Positions 20,413 through 63,597 of a stretch of 64,000 nt of DNA are shown in pieces. Below the pieces are notes generated by a model. That model was not told where the DNA came from, searched no databases, and worked only from the letters and a program-made list of their open reading frames with translations. Position 1 is the first letter of the stretch; each line of letters begins with the position of its first letter. A program made the translations under genes and the position numbers. The stretch comes from Escherichia phage vB_EcoM-LTH01: the sequence record PP430345; one strand, 5' to 3'.

Positions 20413-20418
20413 AATTAA

Positions 20419-46714: not shown

Positions 46715-46730
46715 CAAATTAATAAACACA

Positions 46731-46754
46731 AACCGCCTTTGGGCGGTTTTTTAT
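46731..46754 (+). terminator. intrinsic terminator
   Basis: AACCGCCTTTGGGCGGTT + T6. Confidence 0.8.
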
Positions 46755-49364: not shown

Positions 49365-49377
49365 TCCTGAACTACAG

Positions 49378-49404
49378 AGAGCACCCCAAAAGTGGGTGCT
49401 TTTT
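49378..49404 (+). terminator. intrinsic terminator closing the + strand block
   Basis: GAGCACCCCAAAAGTGGGTGCT + TTTTT. Confidence 0.75.
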
Positions 49405-49429
49405 GCATCTGGATTGCAACCAAACTCAT

Positions 49430-50400
49430 CTGCTCATCCCAAAATGTTGTACACCTCTCCAAAATGTTGTGCCCACCAAACTATATAGTCCTTCCAAACT
49501 GTTGTACTCCAGCTACAATAATGCCCAAATATCGTACAACGATTCCCACAAATATCGATTCATCCCAAAATTAGGTAGTTTGCCTAAAGAGTAACCACTA
49601 CTTGGCCTACTGAGGCGCATCTTTTGCCACAGAGTTACCTCCCTTCCCTATACATCCATCCCTCATAGTTTAGAATTTCCAGTATATGTCTACTCTGAGT
49701 GGACCTCCATCATGAATTTTAAACGACAACTTTTTAGTTTTTATACCCTCCCGCCAAAATTTTGAGTCACCTCTTATGGGGTATGCCGCCTGTGAATATC
49801 CCACAAAATATCTCACAGGTCATAAAATATACCTCCCCGCCAAATTTTATGATGGATACTCCACGGGGGTGGGTCCATTATTTATCCTGCCCAAATATAT
49901 CTAAAGGGGGTAGCCTAAAGAGGCTCGCCAGTAGTGTCCCTTGACCTTGTTCCTCGTCAGCAAGAAAGAAGAGGATGTTTGCATCTTTTTTGTTGAGTGC
50001 GTTGGCACTGTTGCCAGGCACGGCGACCGTGGGGGAGGGGGAGGGGGTCGGATGTTTTCAAAATATCCAGGAAGTCAAGCATTATTTCTATTTATTTTCA
50101 ATCCACAATACATCTTTGATTCGACTTGTCAAGAAAAATGTTGTGCTCTTCCAACAATAAAGTTAAAGATTTCTATTGACTTCTGAATCTGATTTAGAAT
50201 ACTGATTTCAATCTGCATTTAACATAATACAACTTATACGCACTACAAGCGACTTGCAAGCGCCCTTCTTCCAGTCCAACAAGTGAGGCGACCTCAAGCC
50301 CCGCCAGGTCTGGCCCCTTCCAACTTGTGAGAAGAATAATCCCAACTTGTTACTATCCAACTGTGAATTATTCCAACTGTACAGAAGCGACTCCATCAGG
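49430..50400. repeat. iteron-like short direct repeats (CCAA-N-TGT family)
   Basis: CCAAAATGTTGT x2, CCAAACTGTTGT, CCAACAAGTG, CCAACTTGTG, CCAACTTGTT, CCAACTGTG, CCAACTGTAC in an ORF-free region. Confidence 0.5.
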
Positions 50401-50534
50401 GCCATCAATAGCCTGAGCGCCCCGCCATACTCTGGCAATAAAAGCAAGAAAAAATTTATTTTGGGAGAGAAGAGAGAAGAGAGTTTTACCTAGCAATATT
50501 CTATTGTCTGTTCATTCTGTGGGCAAGTAACAGC

Positions 50535-50600
50535 CTTTTACGGCCTCTTTGTGTACTGTGCATCCTCTTTGTGTACCCTACAGCCTCTTTGTGTGGTCAC
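50535..50600. repeat. triple direct repeat CCTCTTTGTGT
   Basis: three copies at ~22-bp spacing. Confidence 0.55.
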
Positions 50601-50714
50601 ACTAACGGCCTTCCTATTGACTAGCTATTCACTTTATATGAATAACAAAGCATTAAATAATTCAATATTATCTTCGATAATGTATTGACAAAAGATAAAA
50701 GATTACTACAAGTA

Positions 50715-50828
50715 GACACTATAAAACGAGGAAACGAAGAGAACAGATAGCAACAATCTGTTTCGTTGATATCGGTTATCACCGATGACCGCATAGCGGT
50801 AGGAGGGGTATACTCGTTTTATAGTGTC
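50715..50828. repeat. nested inverted repeat (long hairpin/cruciform)
   Basis: GACACTATAAAACGAG ... CTCGTTTTATAGTGTC 16-bp perfect inverted repeat enclosing ACAGAT/ATCTGT and ATCGGT/ACCGAT palindromes. Confidence 0.55.
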
Positions 50829-51084
50829 GCTCCCTACGGTCGCGCCACCTCCATACTCTGGCAATGGTATCTCTTTAAAACTGCTTTCTTTGTGGGCAAG
50901 ATAGTTCTTTCTTTGTGTGTTTTGTTGTGGTAAGCTATCAGATTAGTTTTGATTTTTGGGAGAGAGATTCCAAAGGGTGATTGGATTGATGGGTAAAGTA
51001 AGTTAGAGGGGTTAGATAGGATAAGATGATCCAAATAGGGAAGAGATTAATAGAGTTGGGAGAGTCACGCCGATGGATATGATA

Positions 51085-51105
51085 AGGGCCGCTATTGCGG
51101 CCCCT
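51085..51105 (-). terminator. intrinsic terminator closing the minus-strand block
   Basis: minus strand GGGCCGCAATAGCGGCCC followed by TTATCAT. Confidence 0.5.
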
Positions 51106-51119
51106 GATTATGTTACCTC

Positions 51120-51539
51120 TTAAAGTGCTTCATAGATTTCATAGTAGCGATTTGCCAGATCATTACGAAAGCGGAATTTTTCATCACGTTTGATAATCAG
51201 GTCTTTAAAGCCAAAATCTTTCAGTGCTTCATTAACTTTACTGCGGCTTACTTTCATGTTGTCCTGTGCATCACCGATAAATTTGTTGCTGTGCTGCATT
51301 GCTTTAATTTCTTCTTCCAGAACCAGGGCAACTACACGAACCGGATCAAGGCGATAATCGTTAACATCCATACGGCATTGTAAACGGCTTTTAACGTCTG
51401 CCACTGGATAAACTGCAACCTCTTCCCCATCAACATTGACGATAACCAGTTTACCATCAATTTCAAAACCTTTGGCGGCGCTACCGTGACAAAAAGCGTT
51501 ATCGAAAGAGTAAGCCGGATTAGTTGATTTGATGTTCAT
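51120..51539 (-). CDS. hypothetical protein (possible KilA-N/Bro-N-like N-terminal domain)
   Basis: 139-aa ORF with promoter upstream; FEIDGKLVIVNVDGEEVAVYPVADV loosely Bro-N-like. Confidence 0.55.
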   Translation of the reverse strand: MNIKSTNPAYSFDNAFCHGSAAKGFEIDGKLVIVNVDGEEVAVYPVADVKSRLQCRMDVNDYRLDPVRVVALVLEEEIKAMQHSNKFIGDAQDNMKVSRSKVNEALKDFGFKDLIIKRDEKFRFRNDLANRYYEIYEAL

Positions 51540-51671
51540 GTCGTTGTCCTTTGTTTTGTTGTTTGCTGCTAGAGATATAACTATACTGCAAAATTGACTT
51601 TCTTGTCAATAGAGGGAATTGTAAATTAATGGAATATTTACAAAGGGGGCATATAACCCCCGTTTTCGATA

Positions 51672-51941
51672 TTACTTAGTATACCCTTTAAACCACTCCT
51701 GCCAGGCCTGGTTATGTTCTGCCTCATCACGACGAATCTGTTTTTGCTCCGCAAGTCGGATCTCATCTTCGAGGTAGCCCAGGATATCGGCCTTTTTGAC
51801 TTTCTGCAACTTCCAATCATCAGCTTTGTGGCTGAATACCTTATAAGCCTTCTCACATACTTCTTTTTTGCTCCCTTTCTGAACTTCAAGGATACGGTAA
51901 GCCATATGCTGAACTACTTTAAGCTGGTCGATGCGATTCAT
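51672..51941 (-). CDS. hypothetical protein
   Basis: 89-aa ORF with balanced composition; preferred over overlapping 51638..51889. Confidence 0.5.
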   Translation of the reverse strand: MNRIDQLKVVQHMAYRILEVQKGSKKEVCEKAYKVFSHKADDWKLQKVKKADILGYLEDEIRLAEQKQIRRDEAEHNQAWQEWFKGYTK

Positions 51942-51996
51942 GATGTTAATCCTGTTAGGTCAGTTAGTGGGCCTTTCGGCCCGTTTGATTATTCTA

Positions 51997-52272
51997 TTAT
52001 GAGCGTCTGGCAAATTCAAGAGTTTTTTCTTCGAAATCTTCTTGAGCTTGCCACAATACTGATTGCATCATGTGATTAGCATCAGTGAAACCGTTGCTTT
52101 TAGCAAACTTATCCGCGCCGCCTTCTTCTGCGTATTCTGCATTCATAGCTGCAACATTATGATACTCGATGTTATTGAGGTAAGGACTTGCTACACCGTC
52201 AACATCTGTAGCCACTACCATATCCCAAAACTCAGTGATTTCTTTGTCTAATTTGGCGTTAAGTTGTAACAT
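51997..52272 (-). CDS. hypothetical acidic protein
   Basis: 91-aa ORF downstream of TTGACA promoter. Confidence 0.55.
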   Translation of the reverse strand: MLQLNAKLDKEITEFWDMVVATDVDGVASPYLNNIEYHNVAAMNAEYAEEGGADKFAKSNGFTDANHMMQSVLWQAQEDFEEKTLEFARRS

Positions 52273-52792
52273 TTTGTACCCTTTTTGATGTTTTGAATGT
52301 TTGCCCTACGAGAGATATAATAGTATACAACTTACTTTTGTGTCAACAATCTTTTTAACTTCTTTTCTTGTTTCTTTCTTTCTTTCCTGGTGCTCTTTTG
52401 TTTCTCACAGTTTAACACTTCGATCGCAATCTCAGTAGAAGGTGTCTAGGAGCGCCCCTTTTCGGGACTTACTCAACGTGCCCTTTCTCAACACTTGCCA
52501 GCCTTTTTCATCTGGACGATTCGAAAACTTAGAAACTTTCTGATACTTTATCGGATTCGACTTCTCAGAACTTACATCATAGAGTAACTACTTTGCATCA
52601 CTGCTTCGCTGCCCTACGTGATAAATAATAATATAACGGTAGTCCGGTGTCAATAGGTAGAATTGTAAAGATTTGATAGATTTTATTTTATTTTTGGTGA
52701 GTATTGATAGTTATTTACTATCGCCATATAGAGGGGTCGTCCAGTGATTACCTTCCCCTGTCCCCAGTTGCCGCCCGTTTGATAAGAATAGC

Positions 52793-52823
52793 AAAAAAGG
52801 GCCGAACAAGTCAAGCCCTTTTG
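52793..52823 (-). terminator. intrinsic terminator
   Basis: minus strand AAGGGC...GGCCCTT hairpin + T6. Confidence 0.55.
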
Positions 52824-52829
52824 TTGAGG

Positions 52830-53090
52830 TTAATAAACAGACCAGGGTATTTTTAACATTCCGTTAATCTCTATCGTTTGCTCAAGTATGGCCCTGTTGA
52901 TAAATGATGTTATTGCTTTAATGTCTACTTGTTCGAACGTATCAGAGTAGCACCAACTATAAGCGCCAGAATCATCCTTTGAAGGATACACTTGTACAAG
53001 GAGATCGCCACCTGGTTGATCAATCAGTTCAACACATAACTTTAATGCTTTTGCCTCTTCTACCGCATTAATTAACATTGCAATGCTCAT
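52830..53090 (-). CDS. hypothetical protein
   Basis: 86-aa ORF; terminator downstream. Confidence 0.5.
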   Translation of the reverse strand: MSIAMLINAVEEAKALKLCVELIDQPGGDLLVQVYPSKDDSGAYSWCYSDTFEQVDIKAITSFINRAILEQTIEINGMLKIPWSVY

Positions 53091-53293
53091 ATTTCGCCCC
53101 CTATGAAGTCTGATCGATTGCTTTCTGTCATGCGTTTATGTAAATCAGATAATTTTGAAATGGCTTCCAATGTATCGCTTTCTAACGATGAATCTAGATA
53201 GCTCTCATCGTTGATAACCTTCCGTCTATGGTGATAGCGTAATACAGATAAAGCCTTTTTAATGTCGGATGAGCTAATCATTGAAATACTCAT
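53087..53293 (-). CDS. hypothetical protein
   Basis: 68-aa ORF, overlapping stop/start with downstream gene. Confidence 0.5.
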   Translation of the reverse strand: MSISMISSSDIKKALSVLRYHHRRKVINDESYLDSSLESDTLEAISKLSDLHKRMTESNRSDFIGGEI

Positions 53294-53341
53294 TATTGTT
53301 TCTCTTTGGTTGACTTGGGGCGTTGCCGCCCCTTATTAATA

Positions 53342-53587
53342 TTAGAATTGGCGAGTAAGGCGGTCGGTGTTTTCCTGCATTACAACCTTACCTGTTGCTA
53401 CCATTTCTTTGATTTTTTCATCATTAATAATGTTGTTGTTCTCTTTAATCCACTTCCAACGATTACCCATCAAGGTATCCCCTTTTAATGCATAATACCA
53501 AACGTTGTTGGGCATCTTGATCCAGGCTGTACCGCGTGAATTTTTAGGATCGTGATAGATATTGCCAATTTTAGTTGTCTGGTACAT
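53342..53587 (-). CDS. hypothetical protein
   Basis: 81-aa ORF with promoter, palindrome and SD AAAAGG. Confidence 0.5.
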   Translation of the reverse strand: MYQTTKIGNIYHDPKNSRGTAWIKMPNNVWYYALKGDTLMGNRWKWIKENNNIINDEKIKEMVATGKVVMQENTDRLTRQF

Positions 53588-53686
53588 GATTTTTTACCTT
53601 TTCCAGTGGGCTGCACCATTGCCGCCCTACGTGATAAATATTAGCATATTGACGATCCGTGTCAATAGTTTTCCATTAATATTTCA

Positions 53687-54088
53687 TTACAGACCTAGGA
53701 TAGCCCGTACTTCGTTACGTTCTTTGGCCTCAGTCATGATCATACTTAAAATAGCTGGATTAATATAACCTTTTTCCATAGCCTCGCGAACTGGAACATC
53801 ATAAGCCCCAAAACCAGTGCGAACGATACGCACATCATTAAGATTAGTATTATAGATACCGCCCAAATACACGGCCTTGAATACTGCATCAACGCTATAC
53901 TCGATGTTACCATCATTTACGTTTTCAATCTCGATGTTACGAGATACCGCCCAACGTTTACAGCTTCCAATCAGGTAACATTGCTCTTTTGTCAGATTAC
54001 CATTGGATACTGCATATTTGAGGGCTTCAGGGCCGAAAGTTTTAGCAATGTTGGCAACGTCAGCGTAAGAGGTGATTGTAAAGTTCAT
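53687..54088 (-). CDS. hypothetical protein
   Basis: 133-aa ORF; promoter and GCGGCA palindrome upstream; SD GGAG. Confidence 0.55.
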   Translation of the reverse strand: MNFTITSYADVANIAKTFGPEALKYAVSNGNLTKEQCYLIGSCKRWAVSRNIEIENVNDGNIEYSVDAVFKAVYLGGIYNTNLNDVRIVRTGFGAYDVPVREAMEKGYINPAILSMIMTEAKERNEVRAILGL

Positions 54089-54172
54089 GATGATAACTCC
54101 AGTCAGTGAGCGGCAACATTGCCGCCCCTACAAGATGAATATTAACAGATTAAGGATTTATGTCAATACTTT
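54089..54172 (-). promoter_or_regulatory. early promoter + GC palindrome unit
   Basis: minus strand AAAAAGTATTGACA - 16 nt - TAATAT, then GCGGCAATGTTGCCGC palindrome, SD GGAG. Confidence 0.55.
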
Positions 54173-54559
54173 TTATTCGATATTGATTAAATTGTTGTTG
54201 TCAATGTAGGCTGACACGTTCGGCATAAATTTAGCGGCATTTGTTAAACGGTTAGCCGTGTTAGTGGTGTATGTTTCAGGACGATCCCAAAAGCCTACGC
54301 CGTGACCGTTGCGTGTAAGATGTAAATCATTCCCTATCTGGATCGCTGTTGCACCGTCAGCCATTGCCTCAGAGATAGCGGCGATATTGGCATTAATGAA
54401 GGCTGTTACATCCTGGGCGATCCGGTCGTTTGCGTCCTGGGAGAAGTCATAAGGATCAAGGTTATCGATATGCTCCCCGTGCTGATCCGTTGCTGATTCA
54501 GCGAAAATAAAGGCTTCTTTGTAACCGTCGATAATTGTATTGATGATTTCTTGTTTCAT
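54173..54559 (-). CDS. hypothetical protein
   Basis: start moved to MKQEI; track N-terminus (54586) runs through the palindrome. Confidence 0.5.
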   Translation of the reverse strand: MKQEIINTIIDGYKEAFIFAESATDQHGEHIDNLDPYDFSQDANDRIAQDVTAFINANIAAISEAMADGATAIQIGNDLHLTRNGHGVGFWDRPETYTTNTANRLTNAAKFMPNVSAYIDNNNLINIE

Positions 54560-54603
54560 TTCATTTATTCCTTTATATGGCGGCATTGTTGCCGCCCTGT
54601 TGA

Positions 54604-54777
54604 TTAGTAGTCTTCTTCTTCGCTGTTGTAATACTTGATCCCGTTCTCATCTGTAACGGTGATGTTTTCCTGGCCTAACAAGGAAAGCTCATGAGCGTAG
54701 CGAATTGCATCGCTTAAATTGTCCATCCAATGGATGTTAATGCCTTTGCGAGAGATGTGGAAAATAGTCGGGATCAT
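54604..54777 (-). CDS. small protein (57 aa)
   Basis: SD AAGAGGAAAC upstream; below track cutoff. Confidence 0.35.
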   Translation of the reverse strand: MIPTIFHISRKGINIHWMDNLSDAIRYAHELSLLGQENITVTDENGIKYYNSEEEDY

Positions 54778-54790
54778 TTGTTGTTTCCTC

Positions 54791-54895
54791 TTAACCGATA
54801 CCGTGGGAAGATAGGATCATATTAGCCATAGTTGCAATCACTCCAACCGATAAAGTTAAACCGATAATTGCTACCGTGAAAACTTTCTCTGACAT
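54791..54895 (-). CDS. tiny membrane peptide (34 aa)
   Basis: hydrophobic MSEKVFTVAIIGLTLSVGVIATMANMIL; SD AAAGGG; follows promoter/palindrome unit. Confidence 0.3.
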   Translation of the reverse strand: MSEKVFTVAIIGLTLSVGVIATMANMILSSHGIG

Positions 54896-54970
54896 GATTT
54901 TACCCTTTTTCAGTGAGCGGCGCTATTGCCGCCCTACGTGGTACACTTTACCAGATTATTAATTGCCGTC
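54896..54970 (-). promoter_or_regulatory. early promoter + GC palindrome unit
   Basis: AAAAAAGTAGTTGACG ... TAAAGT ... GGGCGGCAATAGCGCCGCTC. Confidence 0.55.
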
Positions 54971-55098
54971 AACTACTTTTTTCGAATTATTTTGTGCCCT
55001 TTTAAAAGCCCGAGGGTAAGCCAGGGCGTAAATAGCGTCAAGTAAGGTGATTGCATACTTTCGCCGTTTTAGGCTGTTACAGGACCATTTATCGCCTC

Positions 55099-55377
55099 TT
55101 AACGGTTATAAATATTGTGGATAGTGATAAAGGTTCTACGACCATACGCCGCCAAATCGGGATTGATCCAGGCATTATCTAACATCGTTTCAAGGATGAT
55201 AGAATCATCATGCAAAGCATCATAGAAATCAGCATGAACGATCGTTTCAATATCGTCTGATGTTAGCTCTGTATTCAGCTTACAGGTTGCTTGCAAATCA
55301 GCTTCACGCTTCCAATCTCCAAGATTAGTAGTCAGAATGTTGGTGATCTCTTCGGTGGATAATTTAGTAATAGTCAT
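55099..55377 (-). CDS. hypothetical protein
   Basis: start moved to MTITKL after SD AGAGAGGA; track N-terminus crosses palindrome. Confidence 0.5.
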   Translation of the reverse strand: MTITKLSTEEITNILTTNLGDWKREADLQATCKLNTELTSDDIETIVHADFYDALHDDSIILETMLDNAWINPDLAAYGRRTFITIHNIYNR

Positions 55378-55435
55378 GATAGATATCCTCTCTTTTCTCT
55401 TTAATAAGGCGGGAACTATTCCCGCCGCTTTATGA

Positions 55436-55675
55436 TTATTTGATAATGAAAGCGTAGCCGCTGCCGTCCGGTGTTTCACCGCTTGCAACGATATTCCAAT
55501 CAATATCTGTTGTCATCTTCAATTTTGTAATTAACACTTCTGCCGCCAGTTTATGGGCTTCGTTGATCTCGGCTACCGGATAGGCTATAGTGATATCTGT
55601 CAACCAACATTTTGCTTTGATGCGAGCGCCACGGGTATTAGTAGGAGGAAGAAATTTAGTGATAATAGTTTGCAT
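55436..55675 (-). CDS. hypothetical protein
   Basis: 79-aa ORF; TTTACA-N16-TACAAT promoter upstream. Confidence 0.5.
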   Translation of the reverse strand: MQTIITKFLPPTNTRGARIKAKCWLTDITIAYPVAEINEAHKLAAEVLITKLKMTTDIDWNIVASGETPDGSGYAFIIK

Positions 55676-55751
55676 GGTCTTTACCTTTCTTTGGTTGGCT
55701 TTATTGCCTGATTTGTATTGTACTTACTTTGTTGTTTTTGTAAAGCTATTT

Positions 55752-55970
55752 TTAAATCTTTGTGAGGATTATACACTCAGTGGGGATGTTCCCCACACTT
55801 ACGATCATTGACCTGATTTGTGTAACCTTCATATTCAGCCGACAACAAATGGCGGTGAATAATCTCATCTGTTTTTCTACTTCTCCATCTTTGCAGATCC
55901 ATACGGTGGATTCACCTGGCGCAAGATTCTTAAGGATCTCGGTCTTACCTGTAATGTTGACAATATTCAT
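55752..55970 (-). CDS. hypothetical protein
   Basis: SD GAGGAATAA upstream of ATG. Confidence 0.4.
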   Translation of the reverse strand: MNIVNITGKTEILKNLAPGESTVWICKDGEVEKQMRLFTAICCRLNMKVTQIRSMIVSVGNIPTECIILTKI

Positions 55971-56195
55971 TTTATTATTCCTCAGTGTAGCGAGTGTCGT
56001 AAAGTACAGCGGCGGCAGTAGCAGAACATACAGCGACCAGGAGAGAAACTAAGAAAATTGCCATCATGATAATCACCTTTGAGTTTTTTCGTTTTGGGCT
56101 ATCTCGCCCCGTTGAAAGTACTATACTACTACCCAATGTTTGTTGCAACTACTTTTTAAAACTTTTTATAACTTTCTTTTAAGTGCATGAATTAA

Positions 56196-56348
56196 TTAAA
56201 ATTCATAAAGGATAACATTAAATTCATCAATGATTTGGGCCTTATGATATCCTCCCTTTGCCAGCTTGTAAGCCGTGCACAAATCAAAAAAGGTCCGGCT
56301 GATCGGTGACGATGATTCTGTTTCCCAGGTCAATAACTTATACACCTT
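56196..56348 (-). CDS. hypothetical small protein (GTG start)
   Basis: track start 56411 overlaps upstream gene by 53 nt; GTG after GAGG. Confidence 0.3.
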   Translation of the reverse strand, partial: KVYKLLTWETESSSPISRTFFDLCTAYKLAKGGYHKAQIIDEFNVILYEF

Positions 56349-56358
56349 ACACCTCAAT

Positions 56359-56565
56359 TTAGTTTGAATATTTATAATCTTCTGACCAGTAAATAACTTT
56401 AATCCCTGCATATCCTGTAAAAACAGACAATGCAGCGAAAGCTATGCTAATACCTATTGCCCCAGGAAACAAAGATCCTATGGCGACGATTAAAGATAGC
56501 CCTGCAATAGCCAGGAGGGTAGTCGCAATAAAGCTAACAAAGTTATATACAATTTTCTTTTTCAT
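56359..56565 (-). CDS. small membrane protein
   Basis: two TM segments; promoter TTGACG-N17-TATAAT upstream. Confidence 0.5.
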   Translation of the reverse strand: MKKKIVYNFVSFIATTLLAIAGLSLIVAIGSLFPGAIGISIAFAALSVFTGYAGIKVIYWSEDYKYSN

Positions 56566-56591
56566 TTCTATAAATCCTATTTCGTTTGCCT

Positions 56592-56637
56592 ATGCCGTCC
56601 ATTATAGGTACGGCACAAGCCAACGTCAACAAGTTTT
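56592..56637 (-). promoter_or_regulatory. promoter with palindrome spanning the -10
   Basis: TTGACG - 17 nt - TATAAT with TGCCGT...ACGGCA inverted repeat around the -10. Confidence 0.45.
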
Positions 56638-56802
56638 TTAAATTAGTTTAGTACCTGGCTTGTTAAGGTGGCGCTTTGCCATTTTAACCGCTGTTACTTT
56701 ACTATGACCAGCTTCACGATAAAAGTTAACCAGACGTTTCAAGTTTTCTTTCTTCTCAGCCTTATTGGGCCAATTTACATAAGATAAATTTTGCGGATTC
56801 AT
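56638..56802 (-). CDS. hypothetical basic protein
   Basis: start at MNPQN with ATGA overlap to upstream stop. Confidence 0.45.
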   Translation of the reverse strand: MNPQNLSYVNWPNKAEKKENLKRLVNFYREAGHSKVTAVKMAKRHLNKPGTKLI

Positions 56803-57101
56803 TTGCTTTTTTCCTCGTAGAAACAAGCTGCAACAAAACCAATAATTACAGTGTTCACTTCCGATTTTGGGATCGGATGGCTACTACCTGATGCGATAAC
56901 TTCACCGCCGTTGGTCAAGGTATAGATTAAAACAGACGTAGCAGGTTCTTTACCTTCCTTGACTGTTAGCACGGCTTCGCTATCTTCAAAGTCACCATTA
57001 TCTTTTTTGCGTTTAAAGACCATTGACTTTTTGCCCATAGCTACAAAGATACTTTCGTCAAGTGAATCTAAAAAGAAATACTCATTTGCTTTGGTAAACA
57101 T
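56799..57101 (-). CDS. hypothetical protein
   Basis: 100-aa ORF; TTGACG promoter upstream. Confidence 0.5.
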   Translation of the reverse strand: MFTKANEYFFLDSLDESIFVAMGKKSMVFKRKKDNGDFEDSEAVLTVKEGKEPATSVLIYTLTNGGEVIASGSSHPIPKSEVNTVIIGFVAACFYEEKSK

Positions 57102-57161
57102 GATTATGCCTCATTTGTCGATTTGTTACAGTTTAAATTAAAATGACCTTCACGTCAACTA

Positions 57162-57341
57162 TTAATTTGCTACTTTTTTCTGATAGCCTTCACGAAAGTA
57201 AGCGCGGATTTGGCCCAAAGATAAACGCATGTCGTTTTTGAGGGAGCTAATAGAGTAAGCCTTGTTTTTTATGATTTCGTGGTGTCCGGTTCCGTTACCA
57301 ATGATAATGTTTACAGTAGCTACCATCATACTTGCTTTCAT
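57162..57341 (-). CDS. small protein (59 aa)
   Basis: follows promoter + GGCGGGGA palindrome unit; below track cutoff. Confidence 0.4.
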   Translation of the reverse strand: MKASMMVATVNIIIGNGTGHHEIIKNKAYSISSLKNDMRLSLGQIRAYFREGYQKKVAN

Positions 57342-57402
57342 TTTGTTGGCCTTTCGTTTTGTGGCGGGGAAACACTCCCCGCCTGATGTGATATATTATA
57401 CT

Positions 57403-57654
57403 TTACGCTTTTAACTTTGCAAGTGATTTATTAAACATTTCAGCGGTAATATTTTTACCCGTTGGTTGTACTTTATCCAGGATCTTTTGGTGTGCACTAC
57501 GTCCGAAAGAATAAGATCCATAAGCCGTTAGCCAATAGTCGCCATTTTGGTTTACATGCACCGCACAATAAGGTACTCCACGGGATTCATCACTAATGAA
57601 GTGAGATACTGTACCCGTTACATTAGCCGTCGTAGTTTTGATTTGTTCTAACAT
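57403..57654 (-). CDS. hypothetical protein
   Basis: 83-aa ORF; promoter/palindrome/SD CCTAGGAG unit. Confidence 0.5.
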   Translation of the reverse strand: MLEQIKTTTANVTGTVSHFISDESRGVPYCAVHVNQNGDYWLTAYGSYSFGRSAHQKILDKVQPTGKNITAEMFNKSLAKLKA

Positions 57655-57741
57655 TTCTCTTACTCCTAGGACATAGGCGGGAAGTGTTCCCGCCTTCTAT
57701 GTAATATAGTTTACTCGTTTTCTCTATGCTGTCAATGATAA
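57655..57741 (-). promoter_or_regulatory. early promoter + GC palindrome unit
   Basis: TTGACA ... GGCGGGAACACTTCCCGCC ... SD. Confidence 0.5.
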
Positions 57742-58122
57742 TTACATATCTTTTTTGCGTTTAACATCAACAGCGTTCGAATAAACAGGGATGTTATTGT
57801 CACGGCAAAAGCGGGAAAGGTAACTATACTCTGAAAACTCTTTTCCTTCCAGGTTGATAACCTTGCTAAATTCTTCCAGTGCCACGGTATCGAAATGATC
57901 ACCATAGCCATATTTGAACGGCACGCTAACTACCTCAACCAATTTACCAGCGATCTCCACGTCTACACTTAAAGAGAAATAAGTATTACCGTATGATTGT
58001 TGGAACCAACGGCGGGCCAGGACGTGCACCGCTTCCACGTTTGACAGCTTGATTTTAGAATCTGCATTCAGAGTAACCATATCAGCATAATCGCAAACGT
58101 TAGTATTTTTAGCCATTTTCAT
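57742..58122 (-). CDS. hypothetical protein
   Basis: 126-aa ORF; promoter TTGACT-N17-TAAATT and palindrome upstream. Confidence 0.55.
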   Translation of the reverse strand: MKMAKNTNVCDYADMVTLNADSKIKLSNVEAVHVLARRWFQQSYGNTYFSLSVDVEIAGKLVEVVSVPFKYGYGDHFDTVALEEFSKVINLEGKEFSEYSYLSRFCRDNNIPVYSNAVDVKRKKDM

Positions 58123-58205
58123 AATCTCTTTTTGTTTAGCGGGGCCATTCCCCGCCTGATGTGATTAATTTACTTGTTTTGTTTCTTTCAGTCAACTACT
58201 TTTTC
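58123..58205 (-). promoter_or_regulatory. early promoter + GC palindrome unit
   Basis: AAAAAGTAGTTGACT - 17 nt - TAAATT, GGCGGGGAATGGCCCCGC. Confidence 0.55.
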
Positions 58206-58208
58206 AAA

Positions 58209-58502
58209 TTATTTTTGCAATGCACGTTGTAAGTTTTCAGCGTCCAGATTATCAATCATGTAGCTCATAACTTCTTTTACTTCTTGCAAGTCTTCCTCTG
58301 TTAATTCCTCACCTTCCGGCATAGGTTCAACCTCAGGCGATGCGATACAGGCCGGATTAATCCAACGGCGATCTTGCTCATACGCCGTAGTAACAATCTC
58401 ACACGCTAAAGGATCATCGAATGACTCAACTACATAATCATCACATTGGCGAACGGCGGCAGCACCATAAAAACAAAATCCTGCAAAAACTTCGTATAAC
58501 AT
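58209..58502 (-). CDS. hypothetical acidic protein
   Basis: start moved to MLYEVF after SD AAAGGTGA. Confidence 0.5.
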   Translation of the reverse strand: MLYEVFAGFCFYGAAAVRQCDDYVVESFDDPLACEIVTTAYEQDRRWINPACIASPEVEPMPEGEELTEEDLQEVKEVMSYMIDNLDAENLQRALQK

Positions 58503-58587
58503 AATAATCACCTTTGGGTTATCTTCATCTCGTCTTGATGAAACTAATATACATCCTCTCAAAAATGGATGCAAGAAGTTTTTTAAA

Positions 58588-58815
58588 TTATTTTCTAATT
58601 ATCTTTACTGCCTGGATAGTCTCGCAAGATGACGGATCAACAATCAACAATTGGCTTACGCTGACCTTTATTTCTTCCCTAGAGGCCGTAGCAGTGATTG
58701 AACGTGTAACGCTGGTATAATCCTTACCTTGCGGGATTAGATACGTTATAGACGTTCCCAGGGCGTTGTTTTTGAGGAAGCGGATCACTTCTGTAAGTGA
58801 AAGAATATTGATCAT
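58588..58815 (-). CDS. hypothetical protein
   Basis: start moved to MINIL (SD GGAG); track N-terminus lies in terminator hairpin. Confidence 0.45.
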   Translation of the reverse strand: MINILSLTEVIRFLKNNALGTSITYLIPQGKDYTSVTRSITATASREEIKVSVSQLLIVDPSSCETIQAVKIIRK

Positions 58816-58834
58816 GTCTGTTCTCCATAAAGAA

Positions 58835-58862
58835 AGGCCCACATTATAGCGGGCCTTGATTG
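58835..58862 (-). terminator. intrinsic terminator
   Basis: minus strand AGGCCCGCTATAATGTGGGCCT + TTCTTT. Confidence 0.6.
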
Positions 58863-59003
58863 TTAAAGATCGATTGTATTAGTGATCCATTCGTGCCGCT
58901 TGTTCTCTCGCTTATCTTTTACTTTCTTCTTCTTACATTCTTGATAAGTATTGAAATCAAGTTTTTTAGTTTTGATGATTTTTTGTCGGTTTGTATTAGT
59001 CAT
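58863..59003 (-). CDS. small basic protein (46 aa)
   Basis: K/R-rich ORF followed by intrinsic terminator. Confidence 0.35.
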   Translation of the reverse strand: MTNTNRQKIIKTKKLDFNTYQECKKKKVKDKRENKRHEWITNTIDL

Positions 59004-59006
59004 ATG

Positions 59007-59318
59007 TTAAGCCCTGCGTTTAGTTTGTTGTTCGTGGTAATATTGACGCTCGTCAATAATGTCGTGAATCTCTTCTTCTGTACTGCGGTACACTTCAAAA
59101 ATTATCTCAGCCCCAAGTGACTGGCGATACTGCATAGCGCCAACCGCATCAATCTCTAACATCGGACCATAGTCACGGGATGATCCAACCTTACCACGGT
59201 AACGATACTCAAAGTAACAAAACATTTTATCACGCCTTTTATTGAAGTAACTCATTGTAATTGATGTGGCGATGTAACCTATGCCGAGTAAACCTATGAT
59301 GCTAACAATATCATTCAT
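59007..59318 (-). CDS. membrane-anchored protein
   Basis: start at MNDIVSIIGLLGIGYIA (TM) after SD AAGGA. Confidence 0.45.
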   Translation of the reverse strand: MNDIVSIIGLLGIGYIATSITMSYFNKRRDKMFCYFEYRYRGKVGSSRDYGPMLEIDAVGAMQYRQSLGAEIIFEVYRSTEEEIHDIIDERQYYHEQQTKRRA

Positions 59319-59382
59319 CTTTGTGTCCTTGTTTCTTTTAATCTTGCCCCTGAATACTAATAGGGGCAATGTTAAAAGTCAA

Positions 59383-59592
59383 TCAAAAACTTTCTTTAAT
59401 GATTTGGTCGAGGCGCTCACTTGTTTTCAGTTTTCCCATTTGTTCAAGTTTAACGCTGACCTGATTGAGAATATTTTCGGCTTGCTCAGGGTAAAGATCA
59501 GTAGCTTTCCAAAATGCCTGACGTGCGCCAGATTCTACGGCAACGGCTAAAACTTCCTCTCGAACGTCATTGATTGTTTTTTCATTGATCAT
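59383..59592 (-). CDS. hypothetical protein
   Basis: 69-aa ORF, SD AAAGGTGA. Confidence 0.5.
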   Translation of the reverse strand: MINEKTINDVREEVLAVAVESGARQAFWKATDLYPEQAENILNQVSVKLEQMGKLKTSERLDQIIKESF

Positions 59593-59622
59593 TTTATCAC
59601 CTTTCTATTTTTGCGTTGTATA

Positions 59623-59805
59623 TTAACGATAGTCATCATAAGCAATATTGATAAGTTCGAAATATTTTTCGAAAGCTTCATCAATGCAATCAAGTTCTGC
59701 GATCATTCTGCCATATTTCACAACATAAACCAGACTAGAAGAATCATAGGACAAAGTAACATCGTTAACGCCTTCGATCTTTGTAGTTGCAATCAGTTCT
59801 GTCAT
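59623..59805 (-). CDS. hypothetical protein
   Basis: 60-aa ORF after promoter and GGGGGAA palindrome. Confidence 0.5.
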   Translation of the reverse strand: MTELIATTKIEGVNDVTLSYDSSSLVYVVKYGRMIAELDCIDEAFEKYFELINIAYDDYR

Positions 59806-59900
59806 TTTTCAATCTCTCTTTTTGTTTATGGGGGAAGATGTTTCCCCCTATTCGTTAATTATCTTACTTCTTTATACTCTTTCCGTCAACTACTTTTTTA
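59806..59900 (-). promoter_or_regulatory. early promoter + GC palindrome unit
   Basis: AAAAAAGTAGTTGACG - 17 nt - TAAGAT, GGGGGAAACATCTTCCCCC. Confidence 0.55.
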
Positions 59901-59903
59901 ATC

Positions 59904-60236
59904 TTAGTTTTCTTCTTCTTCTGATTCATCACTGTAAGCACTTTCTAACGTCTCGCCAGTGTAATCATCGATTAAAGAGTCATCATTGTAGTTCACCTGG
60001 ACACCGACGATATAGAATGAGCGCTCATCGGGATCATTGAAATTAATGTTTTGGATATTAGCCATCACCGTATTGATACCTAAAACACTTCCATCGTCAG
60101 TTACAAAATACTGGTATCTCTCATAACCACCACTATTGAAACCAAAATTGATATTTGGGATACCTTTGTCAATGTTGATAGCTTGAGCAATAAAATCATT
60201 TTCAAAGTTAGTCTGCACGATAGATAAAAAGCCCAT
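59904..60236 (-). CDS. hypothetical protein with poly-acidic C-terminus
   Basis: start at MGFLSIV after SD AAAGAGAAGAGAG; C-terminal SDESEEEEN. Confidence 0.5.
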   Translation of the reverse strand: MGFLSIVQTNFENDFIAQAINIDKGIPNINFGFNSGGYERYQYFVTDDGSVLGINTVMANIQNINFNDPDERSFYIVGVQVNYNDDSLIDDYTGETLESAYSDESEEEEN

Positions 60237-60325
60237 TTTGATTTCTCTCTTCTCTTTTGGCGGGGCCATTCCCCGCCTGATGTGATTAATTTACTTGTTT
60301 TGCTTGTTTGTGTCAACTACTTTTT
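60237..60325 (-). promoter_or_regulatory. early promoter + GC palindrome unit
   Basis: AAAAAGTAGTTGACA - 17 nt - TAAATT, GGCGGGGAATGGCCCCGCC. Confidence 0.55.
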
Positions 60326-60329
60326 CTTT

Positions 60330-60569
60330 TTACATTCCAACCATCGCGGCACGGATTGCAGTAGTACTATATTTGAAGCCGTCCGGTGTTTTATCTTGTC
60401 CAGTTTGGCCTAAAAATAACATCATATCACGGGCCGCCTCATTACGGTTAGTATTAGCATGGATAAATTCTTTTGCCATCTGATATAATGACTCTTCGTT
60501 ATTAATCCATAATGAAACATTCCAATGAGTTTTGTTTTTGTGACCGTTGAAAGTTTTAGATTTAGCCAT
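60330..60569 (-). CDS. hypothetical protein
   Basis: 79-aa ORF; promoter TTGACT-N17-GATAAT upstream. Confidence 0.5.
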   Translation of the reverse strand: MAKSKTFNGHKNKTHWNVSLWINNEESLYQMAKEFIHANTNRNEAARDMMLFLGQTGQDKTPDGFKYSTTAIRAAMVGM

Positions 60570-60660
60570 GATGATATTCTCTCTTTTTGATTTTTACTAC
60601 TTGATAAAAGTTATTATCCCAGCACTATCGGCTTAAGTCAATAGTGCTAGATTAAAACTT

Positions 60661-60873
60661 TCAACTAACAATAGTTAATGTGAAATTATAATCACCATTT
60701 TGATAAAGGACTTTATCCCCGAAAGTGCCAACACGTTTCATATTCAAGCGGATACCAAAAAGATCCTGGATATCTTTGAGATTCCGAACGCCTGTAATAT
60801 CTTTATTCAATACTTCATGGTCAGAGAATAAAACTTGTTTTGCATGTTTTAACAGTGTCACGATATTAGCCAT
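60661..60873 (-). CDS. hypothetical protein
   Basis: 70-aa ORF; full promoter/palindrome/SD unit. Confidence 0.5.
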   Translation of the reverse strand: MANIVTLLKHAKQVLFSDHEVLNKDITGVRNLKDIQDLFGIRLNMKRVGTFGDKVLYQNGDYNFTLTIVS

Positions 60874-60951
60874 TTTGATTTCTCTCTTTGATTTGGCGGC
60901 GCTATTGCCGCCCTACGTAATACAGTTTACTCTTTTTCTTCTTGCTGTCAA
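60874..60951 (-). promoter_or_regulatory. early promoter + GC palindrome unit
   Basis: AAAAAAGTAGTTGACA ... GGGCGGCAATAGCGCCGCC. Confidence 0.55.
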
Positions 60952-61092
60952 CTACTTTTTTGCTTTCTTTTCTGCTTCAACCTGGTCAGCCCACGTTTTA
61001 CCCCATACTTGACTATTGTAATGATACTGGCATAAAGCAACACCGCGACGCAGACCAGCAATAGACTTTTTACCACACTGGCAAGTTTTCAT
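60952..61092 (-). CDS. small zinc-finger-like protein (46 aa)
   Basis: MKTCQCGKK...CQYHY; SD AAGAGGAAA; below track cutoff. Confidence 0.35.
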   Translation of the reverse strand: MKTCQCGKKSIAGLRRGVALCQYHYNSQVWGKTWADQVEAEKKAKK

Positions 61093-61176
61093 CTTAGTTT
61101 CCTCTTAGTGGGGAGAACTATTCTCCCCTTGATGTAATGTATTATACTTTATTCGTTTTACTTTGCAACTACTTTT
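61093..61176 (-). promoter_or_regulatory. early promoter + GC palindrome unit
   Basis: AAAAAAGTAGTTGCAA - 16 nt - TATAAT, GGGGAGAATAGTTCTCCCC. Confidence 0.55.
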
Positions 61177-61404
61177 TTAAATCAATTCATCCAGGCATAA
61201 CAGGCGATCAACATTGAGATCGGTTAGGCTGATAGTTGGCACCTGGTAAGATTCGATATACTCGACGCTCGACCATTGACCAAAGTTAGCAACGGCCCAT
61301 TCGTTCAAGATTTTAGAAGATTCATTAATCTTTTTGCTTGTTACAACTGCTACAACCTGGGAGTTACCAACTGTACCGGATACACGAACAATAAGGATAG
61401 CCAT
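61177..61404 (-). CDS. hypothetical protein
   Basis: start at MAILIV after SD AAAGAGA; track N-terminus crosses palindrome. Confidence 0.5.
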   Translation of the reverse strand: MAILIVRVSGTVGNSQVVAVVTSKKINESSKILNEWAVANFGQWSSVEYIESYQVPTISLTDLNVDRLLCLDELI

Positions 61405-61500
61405 AATTTTAATCTCTTTGATGTGAGGCGGCACTATTGCCGCTCTCGATGTAAAACATTATACGTTAATCTAATTACTTTGCAAGTACTATTTGCTACA
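61405..61500 (-). promoter_or_regulatory. early promoter + GC palindrome unit
   Basis: TTGCAA - 16 nt - TATAAT, GAGCGGCAATAGTGCCGCCTC. Confidence 0.55.
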
Positions 61501-61530
61501 AAATTCGTAAATCTTGCCGCTGTCAATTAC

Positions 61531-61803
61531 TTACAATAAGAAATCTACATCTTTCGCTTTTAGGTTAGTATCAACCATCAAAGGATTGTTATAGTCAACA
61601 AAACGAGTAGTTTTCTCAATAGCGAAGCCTAGATACTCTTGCTTGTTGAAAATACATTCTTTCTTAAATGTTTCTTGCGCTACGGCGATCGCTGCATCCA
61701 GGGATAAACGTCCGTCAATATTGATGTTAGCAAATGATCCGCCACCGCTCATAGGTTTACCAGTAAGGCCAGTTACGATCATTGTTGCGCTATATGATGC
61801 CAT
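61531..61803 (-). CDS. hypothetical protein
   Basis: 90-aa ORF with palindrome and SD AGAAGAGAAA. Confidence 0.5.
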   Translation of the reverse strand: MASYSATMIVTGLTGKPMSGGGSFANINIDGRLSLDAAIAVAQETFKKECIFNKQEYLGFAIEKTTRFVDYNNPLMVDTNLKAKDVDFLL

Positions 61804-62018
61804 AATATTTTCTCTTCTATTTGTGAGTCGGGAACTATTCCCGCCTTGATGTAAGTATCTTATTACTATTTGTATTTCATTTCAAGCTATTTTTGACGGT
61901 CACTTGTTTTTCTTATGACTTACAAGTTGTCTACTTATGTTGCCCCGTCTTGATGTGATACATTCTACGCTTTTAATCAGCACTGTCAACAACATTTTCA
62001 ATATTATTTTCATAAAAG

Positions 62019-62046
62019 AAAGGCCCGCACAATGGCGGGCCTTAAC
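62019..62046 (-). terminator. intrinsic terminator
   Basis: minus strand AGGCCCGCCATTGTGCGGGCCT + TTCTTTT. Confidence 0.65.
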
Positions 62047-62049
62047 ATA

Positions 62050-62349
62050 TTAATTGCAGATTATTTTACCTGAAAACTCTTCCACGCCTTCAACCTGGAT
62101 TGATAAGCTACCTTTCTTTGTCGCTGGATCGTAATGGATTATCAGCGTACTGGCTTTACCTTCCTGATATAAAACACCGTCAGTAAATGCCGCCGGATTG
62201 ATCTGGAAAGGCTTAACAAATTTGTTGCCTGTTTCATGGTCCAGCATATGAGCTTTACAATCTATCAAGTTAGCACCGTAAAACTTAGTACCGTGCGCCA
62301 AAAATGGTATACACAATAAAGCAGTAAGTGCAATAACTTTAATCATCAT
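62050..62349 (-). CDS. secreted/periplasmic protein (signal peptide)
   Basis: N-terminal MMIKVIALTALLCIPFLAHG signal-peptide-like; terminator downstream. Confidence 0.55.
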   Translation of the reverse strand: MMIKVIALTALLCIPFLAHGTKFYGANLIDCKAHMLDHETGNKFVKPFQINPAAFTDGVLYQEGKASTLIIHYDPATKKGSLSIQVEGVEEFSGKIICN

Positions 62350-62504
62350 TCTTGATCCGCTGTAAATTCACAAAAGGCCCGCTTTGTACTGCGATCGCGT
62401 TTAGTTTTATTCAGCTTCTTACCTTTGAGATTCAATGTTTCATTCCATGCTTTACGCTCTTTCGTAATGTTGATTTTTTCAATGTTAGTGTTTTGGCTAG
62501 TCAT
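62346..62504 (-). CDS. small basic protein (52 aa)
   Basis: ATGA overlap with downstream gene; SD CAGGAG. Confidence 0.35.
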   Translation of the reverse strand: MTSQNTNIEKINITKERKAWNETLNLKGKKLNKTKRDRSTKRAFCEFTADQE

Positions 62505-62567
62505 GTTAATACTCCTGGATAATGTTATTTAGTGAGGGGCAAATTTGCCCCGTTAATGTTTTGGCTA
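62505..62567 (-). promoter_or_regulatory. GC palindrome in 5' leader
   Basis: GGGGCAAATTTGCCCC upstream of SD CAGGAG. Confidence 0.4.
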
Positions 62568-62780
62568 TTAGTGTTTATTGATCGACAGTGTACCGGATTT
62601 AATAGATACCTTCCATCCTTCTTGTGTTTTGGTCGGTGCACTTACAGTTAAGCCACGGGCTTTAATCTGTTTTGCAACGCTTCGGGCTTCCTCGCGAGTC
62701 CGGTAGCCTGGCATGGTATTTACCATTTCGACGCGAGCAACAGAAGATACACGGGATTTTTTAATGATGATTTTAGCCAT
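62568..62780 (-). CDS. hypothetical basic protein
   Basis: start at MAKIIIKK after SD AGGA. Confidence 0.5.
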   Translation of the reverse strand: MAKIIIKKSRVSSVARVEMVNTMPGYRTREEARSVAKQIKARGLTVSAPTKTQEGWKVSIKSGTLSINKH

Positions 62781-62868
62781 TTTGTTCATTCCTATCAGTT
62801 TTATTGCCGCACCGTTGCGGCGTTACGTGGTATAATTTAATTTACTTCTTTCTTTCTGTCAATACTTT

Positions 62869-63204
62869 TTATTTAAAATATTTGCTTTCGTACTGGTAAG
62901 GCTTACCGTCAGCAGTGTAAACAACAAAGTAACCCGCACGATCCGATTGTTTCAATGTGATCAATTTGTCGTTGCATTCTTTAACAGTCCCCACATAAAC
63001 TATTTGCGGCGATGCCTGGTAGGAGGTAACAGGCTTGCCCACTGGATCGGATTCGAAGCGTAGGACCATTGCATCACGGTTTACACTATCGTAACCCTTG
63101 AAAAATTCAATCTTGTTTTCTTCTTTCTTGTAACGAGTAACACGGCTGTAACCTTGTTGCGCCGCTTGCTGGCCTTCAATGAAATACTTAGTGACTAGTG
63201 CCAT
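62869..63204 (-). CDS. hypothetical protein
   Basis: 111-aa ORF. Confidence 0.5.
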   Translation of the reverse strand: MALVTKYFIEGQQAAQQGYSRVTRYKKEENKIEFFKGYDSVNRDAMVLRFESDPVGKPVTSYQASPQIVYVGTVKECNDKLITLKQSDRAGYFVVYTADGKPYQYESKYFK

Positions 63205-63215
63205 TTTAAAAATCC

Positions 63216-63401
63216 TCAGAAAGTTTTAACTGTTTTATTTGCTTGGAAAGTGTAAGTCTGTACGATACCAAAACGATCGCGAAGTTGCAAGATATTTCTA
63301 TTTACTCTTACAGTATGCTCTTTGTTGCTTACTACAGTGTGCAAATGCCCCTCATGTTGGAAACGTTCGCCAGGATTTACGTTTGTAATTCTTTTATTCA
63401 T
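63216..63401 (-). CDS. hypothetical protein
   Basis: 61-aa ORF; TTGACG-N17-TAGTAT promoter upstream; SD AAAGGG. Confidence 0.5.
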   Translation of the reverse strand: MNKRITNVNPGERFQHEGHLHTVVSNKEHTVRVNRNILQLRDRFGIVQTYTFQANKTVKTF

Positions 63402-63597
63402 TTTGTTGTTGCCCTTTTATTTGTTTACTTGTTGGCATGTCGCCGTTCGATGAGATGAATACTACGCTACCAGATTCACCACGTCAACATTATTTTCAAT
63501 CTTTTTTAATTTCTTTTTCCTTGCTATATAAAGGAAGATCATTTATAGTCTTTTTACCGCGCCAACCAGGGCGCACAATAGAAGAAAGGGCGATACT

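Follow-up and report, generated by a model that had tools for sequence, protein, structure and literature searches.

In the 64,000-nucleotide (nt) stretch of Escherichia phage vB_EcoM-LTH01 analyzed here (record PP430345; "the window"), positions 51084-63497 of the minus strand carry an array of about 40 small genes of unknown function, about 27 sigma-70-like promoters and about 20 GC-rich hairpins. A preliminary description had counted some 38 small genes; the minus-strand array stands, with the number slightly raised. The source is a large lytic Escherichia coli phage, rV5/phAPEC8-like and not T4-like. Plus-strand genes for DNA and nucleotide metabolism (ligase, exonuclease, NrdA, NrdD, tRNA nucleotidyltransferase) lie at positions 1-49 kb, followed by a non-coding stretch at about 49.3-51.1 kb and then by the array. 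This layout matches that of rV5, in which a 2.6-kb non-coding gap precedes the 139-amino-acid (aa) ORF164 and further small open reading frames (ORFs). Over 51120-63480, the nearest records are the phages UPEC06, A73, A7_1, A5-4 and W70 (93.5-95.5% identity), with matches that cover only 43-68% of the interval and are broken into several pieces; GenBank places UPEC06, A73, A7_1 and W70 in the Vequintavirinae. Phapecoctavirus phages (phiWec188, tuntematon) give patchy matches at about 82% identity.

Reading of the minus strand, together with a scripted catalogue, established a repeated unit in which an A-tract, a -35 box (TTGAC(A/G/T) or TTGCAA), a 16-18 nt spacer, a -10 box, a start context (CACGTAG, CACATCA or ACATAGA), a hairpin, a purine-rich (A/G) leader, a Shine-Dalgarno (SD) sequence and an ATG follow one another. 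The stop codon of the upstream gene lies at the 5' end of the unit, and the SD and start codon at its 3' end. In canonical units the spacer measures 16-17 nt, and the hairpin has a GC stem of 5-9 bp and a loop of 3-6 nt. On the minus strand of the array, 16 sigma-70-like sites with a spacer of about 17 nt match the -35/-10 consensus at 10 or more of 12 positions. All eight copies of the A-tract AAAAAGTAG in the window lie within the array, and seven of them directly adjoin the -35. A reading of these promoters as near-consensus sigma-70 promoters with a proximal UP-like A-tract is supported.

Fourteen units combine a promoter with a leader hairpin in canonical form (Table 1), or 16 on a lenient count that admits two weak ones (-35 at 56148 and 55744). 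In five further units (promoters at 60641, 59382, 56629, 58574 and 52814), the palindrome lies across part of the promoter (-35, spacer or -10). Four intergenic hairpins have no promoter, one more follows the last gene, and about six array promoters have no hairpin. The catalogue thus bears out the promoter, GC-palindrome and SD architecture of the preliminary description, including its remark that a few palindromes lie over the -10 or -35; its figure of at least 20 units holds only when these overlapping variants are counted in. That description was also right to regard the extension of ORFs through the palindromes as an artefact, as the extended frame 61177..61434 starts at a GTG within a stem, and 59904..60269 and 54173..54586 start at an ATG within a loop.

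Table 1. Features of the array and their landmarks (all on the minus strand; positions are those of the window).
Feature	Coordinates	Landmarks
Whole array	51084..63497	~40 genes, ~27 promoters, ~20 GC hairpins
Canonical unit	62778..62872	-35 62862-62857; -10 62839-62834; hairpin 62821-62806 (GCCGCA acgg TGCGGC); ATG 62780
Canonical unit	61801..61895	-35 61885; -10 61862-61857; hairpin 61846-61826; ATG 61803; tandem promoter 61989 upstream
Canonical unit	61402..61495	-35 61485; -10 61463-61458; hairpin 61443-61428 (GCGGCA atag TGCCGC); ATG 61404
Canonical unit	61090..61178	-35 61168; hairpin 61128-61110 (GGGGAGAA tag TTCTCCCC); ATG 61092
Canonical unit	60871..60961	AAAAAGTAG + TTGACA 60951; hairpin 60912-60895 (GGCGGC aatagc GCCGCC); ATG 60873
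Canonical unit	60234..60326	-35 60316; hairpin 60277-60259 (GGCGGGG aatgg CCCCGCC); ATG 60236
Canonical unit	59803..59899	-35 59889; hairpin 59848-59830 (GGGGGAA acatc TTCCCCC); ATG 59805
Canonical unit	58114..58205	-35 58195; hairpin 58156-58138; ATG 58116
Canonical unit	57652..57745	-35 57735; hairpin 57695-57675 (AGGCGGGAA cac TTCCCGCCT); ATG 57654
Canonical unit	57339..57432	-35 57422; hairpin 57383-57363; ATG 57341
Canonical unit	54893..54982	-35 54972; hairpin 54934-54915; ATG 54895; upstream boundary of two-gene cassette absent from A73
Canonical unit	54086..54176	-35 54166; hairpin 54127-54108; ATG 54088; 0.9-2 kb insertion/replacement site in UPEC06, A73, A7_1
Canonical unit, one G.A stem mismatch	53585..53675	-35 53665; hairpin 53627-53608; ATG 53587
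Canonical unit	51939..52029	-35 52019 (within upstream ORF end); hairpin 51982-51969 (GGGCC gaaa GGCCC); ATG 51941
Promoter-less intergenic hairpin	62536..62551	GGGGCA aatt TGCCCC; between stop codon and SD of next gene
Promoter-less intergenic hairpin	55408..55426	GGCGGGAA tag TTCCCGCC
Promoter-less intergenic hairpin	54579..54596	downstream boundary of two-gene cassette absent from A73; crossover in its 3' arm
Promoter-less intergenic hairpin	53317..53332	GGGGCG gcaa CGCCCC; boundary of gene replaced in A73, lost in A7_1
Hairpin after last gene of array	51084..51105	AATAG loop; no U-run
Variant unit	60567..60655	8-bp inverted repeat AGCACTAT/ATAGTGCT (60648-60621) brackets -35 (60641-60636)
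Variant unit	59316..59392	palindrome TTGCCCCT/AGGGGCAA (59369-59344) encloses -10 TAGTAT
Variant unit	56563..56640	imperfect palindrome TGCCGTACC/GGACGGCA (56615-56593) encloses -10 TATAAT
Variant unit	58500..58585	promoter 58574; weak 5-bp palindrome in spacer; no leader hairpin; leader CATCAAGACGAGAT (58540-58527)
Canonical intrinsic terminator inside array	62020..62043	9-bp stem + TCTTTT
Canonical intrinsic terminator	58834..58857	86% identical to terminator 62020-62043
Terminator-like hairpin	52793..52822	AAAAGGGC...GCCCTTTTTT; 12-nt loop holds TTGACT -35; terminator and promoter nested in one element

The hairpins are strongly enriched and specific to the array. Between 51120 and 63480 we found 16 perfect GC hairpins, compared with 0.28 +/- 0.57 in dinucleotide shuffles. 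A hairpin starts 6-16 nt after the -10 at 16 of 38 promoter-like sites of the array, versus 4/79, 1/44 and 1/20 on the other strand and in other regions. A repeat finder groups the units into families, and the units at 60316 and 58195 are 90% identical over 81 nt. With a covariance model built from 54 units, 16 matches (E<0.01) were obtained on the sense strand, all inside 53600-62831, three of them being promoter-less hairpins outside the training set; a scan of positions 1-51000 gave no matches. Units also occur in relatives (21 in UPEC06, 17 in A73, 18 in phiWec188 and 21 in tuntematon), and about nine are present in rV5, where the offset is the same but the stems are quite different.

A MAFFT alignment of the units put stems of unequal length out of register; the covariance-model alignment and hairpin calls for each instance were used instead. 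The 90 model matches correspond to 77 distinct instances from five phages, with 36 stem sequences (5-10 bp) and 25 loop sequences (3-7 nt). Hairpin free energies range from -8 to -17 kcal/mol. Covariation in the model alignment scores 0.289, whereas shuffling gives 0.157 (0/500); both sides have changed in 66 cells, and every slid control scores lower. Since the copies are related and their alignment was fitted to the structure, the figures support pairing but are not probabilities. Between close orthologues, 4.6% of stem, 13.5% of loop and 6.6% of flanking nucleotides have changed, and the changes include five distinct double compensatory replacements and four G-C/G.U switches. The preliminary description had set stem covariation in related phages as a check, and the comparison carried out here shows that predicted pairing is conserved, through compensatory changes, rather than sequence. 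At the first position beyond the Watson-Crick core, G.U occurs 26 times versus 10 for A.C or C.A, and in 55 of the 77 instances the sense RNA is more stable than the opposite strand. Because pairing is conserved, G.U exceeds A.C and the sense strand is the more stable, we favor a hairpin that would act as base-paired sense-strand RNA rather than as a DNA palindrome read by a protein.

The closest known counterpart of the unit is the promoter-early stem-loop (PeSL) of the T4-like phages RB49/phi1, PST/T4 and nt-1/KVP40 (Arbiol et al, 2010, PMC2839356; Comeau et al, 2014, PMC4122927). In a PeSL, a sigma-70-like promoter with an AT-rich tract is combined with a Gn-loop-Cn stem-loop, an SD and a start codon; the position of the stem-loop distinguishes five subclasses (PMC2839356; PMC4122927). 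They cluster in hyperplastic regions, among ORFans, and have been associated with indels and mini-circles (PMC2839356; PMC4122927). For comparison, we scanned the ORF185-211 region of RB49 directly (9.8 kb, 16 promoter-like sites). Both sets of units share a near-consensus sigma-70 promoter, a Gn-loop-Cn hairpin with G.T pairs and a 3' SD and ATG, and both cluster among small ORFans with indels between close relatives. The A-rich tract directly upstream of the -35 reads AAAAAGTTGTTGACA in RB49 and AAAAAGTAGTTGACA in the window, and window units align with RB49 units in the A-tract and -35 context. Moreover, the 14-nt leader CATCAAGACGAGAT at 58540-58527 is identical to RB49 PeSL leaders and has the same offset from the -10. 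In RB49, however, the hairpin lies inside the -35/-10 spacer at 7 of the 16 sites and overlaps the -10 at three, whereas in 14-16 window units it lies in the transcribed leader and would be part of the mRNA of the cassette; the RB49 unit at 22322, with its hairpin 10 nt after the -10, resembles the window units.

Judged by their sequence, the window units match the PeSL in AT-rich tract, promoter, stem-loop, stop/SD layout, ORFan setting, indels and sequence similarity. The array is therefore most likely a hyperplastic early region built of PeSL-type cassettes, in a phage of another group (rV5/phAPEC8-like, labeled Vequintavirinae) than the T4-like PeSL hosts. In the rV5 record, several ORFs of the rV5 array are noted as similar to RB49 hypothetical proteins, which fits an exchange of whole cassettes between both phage groups. 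The preliminary description contained neither the PeSL identity, nor the sequence shared with RB49, nor the breakpoints inside hairpins described below.

Alignments with close relatives show hairpins marking breakpoints at which gene cassettes differ. One chimeric unit of A73 equals the window unit at 54972 through the 3' arm of the hairpin and then continues with the sequence that follows the promoter-less hairpin at 54579; in the window, two hairpins therefore flank the pair of genes at 54604-54895. Against UPEC06, A73, A7_1 and W70, 20 of 26 ends of collinear blocks fall within 15 nt of a unit, an association that is confounded, as viable breakpoints must be intergenic and units fill most of the intergenic space. 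A further minus-strand stretch, 52375-52653, is probably a degraded cassette: downstream of its near-consensus promoter (52653) come a decayed hairpin (GGGCAGCGAAGCAG) and some 250 nt that hold no ORF of at least 30 aa, and the matching promoter in phiWec188 and tuntematon has an intact hairpin, with SD and ATG about 48 nt after the -10. The ORF-less stretch of about 250 nt folds no better than its shuffles (z = 0.31).

The geometry of the unit suggests a function for the hairpin. Among 58 distinct units, the hairpin follows the -10 by 10.6 +/- 1.1 nt and precedes the ATG by 20.6 +/- 2.5 nt. With starts predicted 7 nt after the -10 from standard sigma-70 geometry, the 5' untranslated regions would be 42-49 nt long, the hairpin would start at +2 to +7, and the SD would be mostly unpaired. 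RppH and the 5' sensor of RNase E require single-stranded 5' ends, which is why 5' secondary structure stabilizes E. coli mRNA (PMC3997798). Because of this requirement and the predicted +2 to +7 position, we favor a role as an RNA decay barrier, 5'-terminal on the cassette's own transcript and intercistronic on read-through transcripts, and give it about an even chance of being correct. Host RNA polymerase would start about 7 nt after the -10, and the mRNA would begin with 1-6 unpaired nt followed by the hairpin, with a free energy of -8 to -16 kcal/mol. The hairpin would be an obstacle to RppH and to RNase E acting in the 5'-end-dependent pathway, so that early mRNA would live longer. In transcripts that read through, as well as at the four sites lacking a promoter, the hairpin, which would not be an efficient terminator, would lie between cistrons and impede exonucleolytic or end-dependent decay. 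As a by-product, the 80-100 bp repeats would offer homology for recombination that inserts, deletes or swaps gene cassettes. Among the three functions offered in the preliminary description (leader-stabilizing hairpin, RNase III processing site or operator), the first is the best supported, although we infer it from predicted transcription starts.

Comparable stabilizers exist. Transcripts of T7 gene 10 start with a stem-loop, and Emory, Bouvet and Belasco reportedly described, in 1992, 5'-terminal stabilizer stem-loops on the E. coli mRNAs ompA and papA. In each, an open leader with a strong SD likewise comes after a stable hairpin within a few nt of the 5' end (a predicted end in our case). 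These are single mapped cases, whereas the array element comes in about 16 repeats with predicted 5' ends and is also found without a promoter.

Several points weigh against a decay barrier. The predicted 3-6 unpaired 5' nucleotides may still admit RppH; the known minimum of 2-3 unpaired nucleotides applies to the Bacillus subtilis enzyme only (review). Only about 10% of E. coli mRNAs respond to the loss of RppH, and direct-entry RNase E ignores the 5' end (PMC3997798). In RB49, most of the stem-loops sit within the promoter spacer and are thus not part of the transcript of their own cassette; 5' capping can therefore not be what PeSLs do in general, and a founder cassette could have passed on the tight spacing observed here. 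Related copies enter into the counts of G.U pairs and of covariation, which are hence non-independent. Finally, the stem-loop of the RB49 PeSL211/210 cut lacZ read-through as strongly as rrnB T1 (PMC2839356).

This last result bears on whether the hairpins end transcription. None of the unit hairpins is followed by a U-run, the T count in the next 8 nt averaging 1.2 with a maximum of 4, and a terminator consensus scan of the sense strand of the array called only 62043-62020 and 58857-58834, neither of which is a unit hairpin. The four promoter-less hairpins precede genes without an own promoter scoring at least 10/12, so read-through must occur there. Judging from this arrangement, the unit hairpins are unlikely to be efficient terminators, because each cassette's own transcript and the genes behind the promoter-less hairpins would then be silenced. 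The preliminary view of them as probably not terminators, based on the lack of U-runs and on their position after the promoter, is thus upheld for efficient termination. Intrinsic terminators share with the array hairpins a GC-rich stem of 5-9 bp and a small loop but carry a U-tract and lie at unit ends, whereas the array hairpins have no U-tract and follow a promoter. The 5' arm is G-rich in the array hairpins and C-rich, with a T-run, in the plus-strand terminators of the window. Plus-strand hairpins of this latter kind (CCGCCC ttcg GGGCGG TTTTT) lie at 6904-6919, 14363-14382, 20417-20436 and 46730-46749, and a TTGACT promoter element immediately follows the one at 20417. The array terminator 58857-58834 has TATAAT in its loop. 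The gene at ATG 58815 would depend on read-through of this terminator, because its SD and ATG directly follow it without a promoter.

A weaker, partial effect on transcription is the attenuator or insulator function proposed for PeSLs, in which the hairpin would partly stop or pause polymerases arriving from upstream cassettes and so prevent a build-up of transcription along the array. The RB49 lacZ result and the intergenic position of the hairpins speak for it, as does the ASO2A record, in which the orthologous hairpins are labeled "rho-independent terminator predicted by WebGeSTer". Yet the hairpins lack a U-run, would stop transcripts from their own upstream promoter equally, and at four sites precede genes without an own promoter, while proper U-tract terminators are used in the array and the rest of the window where ends are needed; we consider this function unlikely. 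Even less probable is a mainly DNA-level role, in which the GC palindrome, as a cruciform or conserved repeat, would serve as the point at which a mobile gene cassette is exchanged, effects on RNA being incidental. The A73 crossover inside a hairpin, the two-gene cassette between two hairpins, the block ends at units and the 14-nt leader common to phage families agree with such a role, as do the PeSL mini-circles shown in RB49/phi1, with the crossover in the loop (PMC2839356). Set against this, the breakpoint association is confounded by the intergenic requirement, pairing is under clear purifying selection, next to which selection for evolvability is weak, and the G.U pairs and the higher stability of the sense strand point to RNA.

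The alternatives that make the hairpin a binding, cleavage or start site fare worse. A site for a phage or host protein, be it an operator, a boxB-like antitermination signal or a translational repressor site, could explain why the hairpin centers at about +14, a classic operator position, and why the loop motifs AAUAG and AUGG recur; but with 36 stem sequences, 25 loops of 3-7 nt and compensatory changes that alter what a protein would read, besides the G.U pairs, the operator option of the preliminary description is not supported and we hold any such site to be very unlikely. We found no conserved half-site at fixed spacing, as in a palindromic operator, and no conserved pentaloop with an adjacent boxA, as in a lambda-type nut/boxB site. 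An Rfam scan of 49.5-64 kb at a permissive threshold returned only two sub-threshold chance matches, with nothing at the units, and hence no matching family. RNase III substrates require about 20 bp, or roughly two helical turns, of double-stranded RNA. Stems of just 5-10 bp with small loops fall short of this, and RNase III processing that would cut a polycistronic early RNA into units, also raised in the preliminary description, is highly improbable, even though the hairpins are intergenic like those of the T7 early region. We give next to no credence to a phage-specific promoter, a reading that stems from the phAPEC8 GenBank record, where the hairpin 20-mer, a repeat detected by PHIRE, is labeled "putative promoter determined with PHIRE" and comes immediately after a "host dependent promoter". 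The 20-mer always follows a complete sigma-70 promoter, varies in sequence while pairing is kept, and also occurs where no start site is needed.

An extension of the decay-barrier role, which we regard as improbable, would make the leader hairpin a "self" mark: a portable 5' cap that spares phage early mRNAs from an RNase E purge of host mRNA, possibly stimulated by the phage, on a cassette exchanged between unrelated coliphage families (T4-like RB49 and rV5/phAPEC8-like) as an expression-and-protection module. In T4, RNase E is activated by Srd, and rV5 has a gene for an Srd-like protein (PMC3606486; PMC4980113). Relatives of this rV5 protein, gp11, occur in 203 phage records; they do not demonstrate an Srd-like protein in the clade of the phage studied here, and Pfam finds no domain in gp11. 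The Srd link to this phage is thus speculation.

Start codons within the hairpins affect gene annotation. ATG or GTG codons inside loops or stems (e.g., loop AATGG) produce spurious N-terminal extensions in ORF lists, and some GenBank records of relatives appear to use hairpin-extended starts: A73_26 measures 363 nt, and the same gene in UPEC06 312 nt. A 37-aa ORF at 61900-62013 (minus strand), annotated in UPEC06, overlaps promoter 61989 and its leader and is probably not a gene. Behind promoter 56148, a likely gene at 55975-56066 (minus strand) encodes a hydrophobic peptide of about 30 aa (MMAIFLVSLLVAVCSATAAAVLYDTRYTEE), which is lengthened to 55-57 aa in ORF lists and in UPEC06. The 70-aa product of 60661-60873 (minus strand) has homologues in UPEC06 and tuntematon annotated as "phosphoribosylpyrophosphate synthetase", which is implausible at such a size. 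Pfam and PHROG searches with ten array proteins assigned no function, and all ten fall in PHROG families of unknown function; a tRNA scan found none. The adjoining non-coding stretch (49300-51080, about 1.8 kb without a convincing ORF) contains three repeats of 20-bp period at 50539-50594 (CCTCTTTGTGT), inverted repeats of 21 nt (50715-50735, 50808-50828) and, near 50030-50045, a C-rich tract. The stretch may be an origin or packaging region.

That the array represents a host-takeover early module, as the preliminary description put it, is plausible from its organization. Stewart et al. are said to have described such a module in 1998 in the Bacillus phage SPO1, with dense small early genes and strong host-type promoters and ribosome binding sites. 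The array resembles it in these respects but has no sequence relation to it, and several SPO1 gene functions are known, compared with none in the array. To our knowledge, no conserved leader hairpin has been described for the SPO1 module.

Among the promoters and terminators listed in the rV5 paper there is no composite element, and in the literature searched we found no description of a composite element or start-site data for rV5, phAPEC8, PVP-SE1 or the Vequintavirinae. PeSLs are discussed there for T4-type and related large myoviruses, and the searchable literature has none for rV5/phAPEC8-like phages. The array extends the PeSL cassette from T4-like phages to the rV5/phAPEC8 group and exposes conflicting database labels, the same hairpin being called "PHIRE promoter" for phAPEC8 but "terminator" for ASO2A. 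The kind of element was already known; its placement in the leader makes the function of the PeSL stem-loop testable, with about 90 natural variants that have the stem-loop inside the transcript, and the units are potentially usable as compact strong expression parts. The shared cassette sequence supports an exchange of ready-made promoter modules between unrelated coliphages. The array bears on how the long runs of tiny early genes in large lytic phages are expressed and reshuffled.

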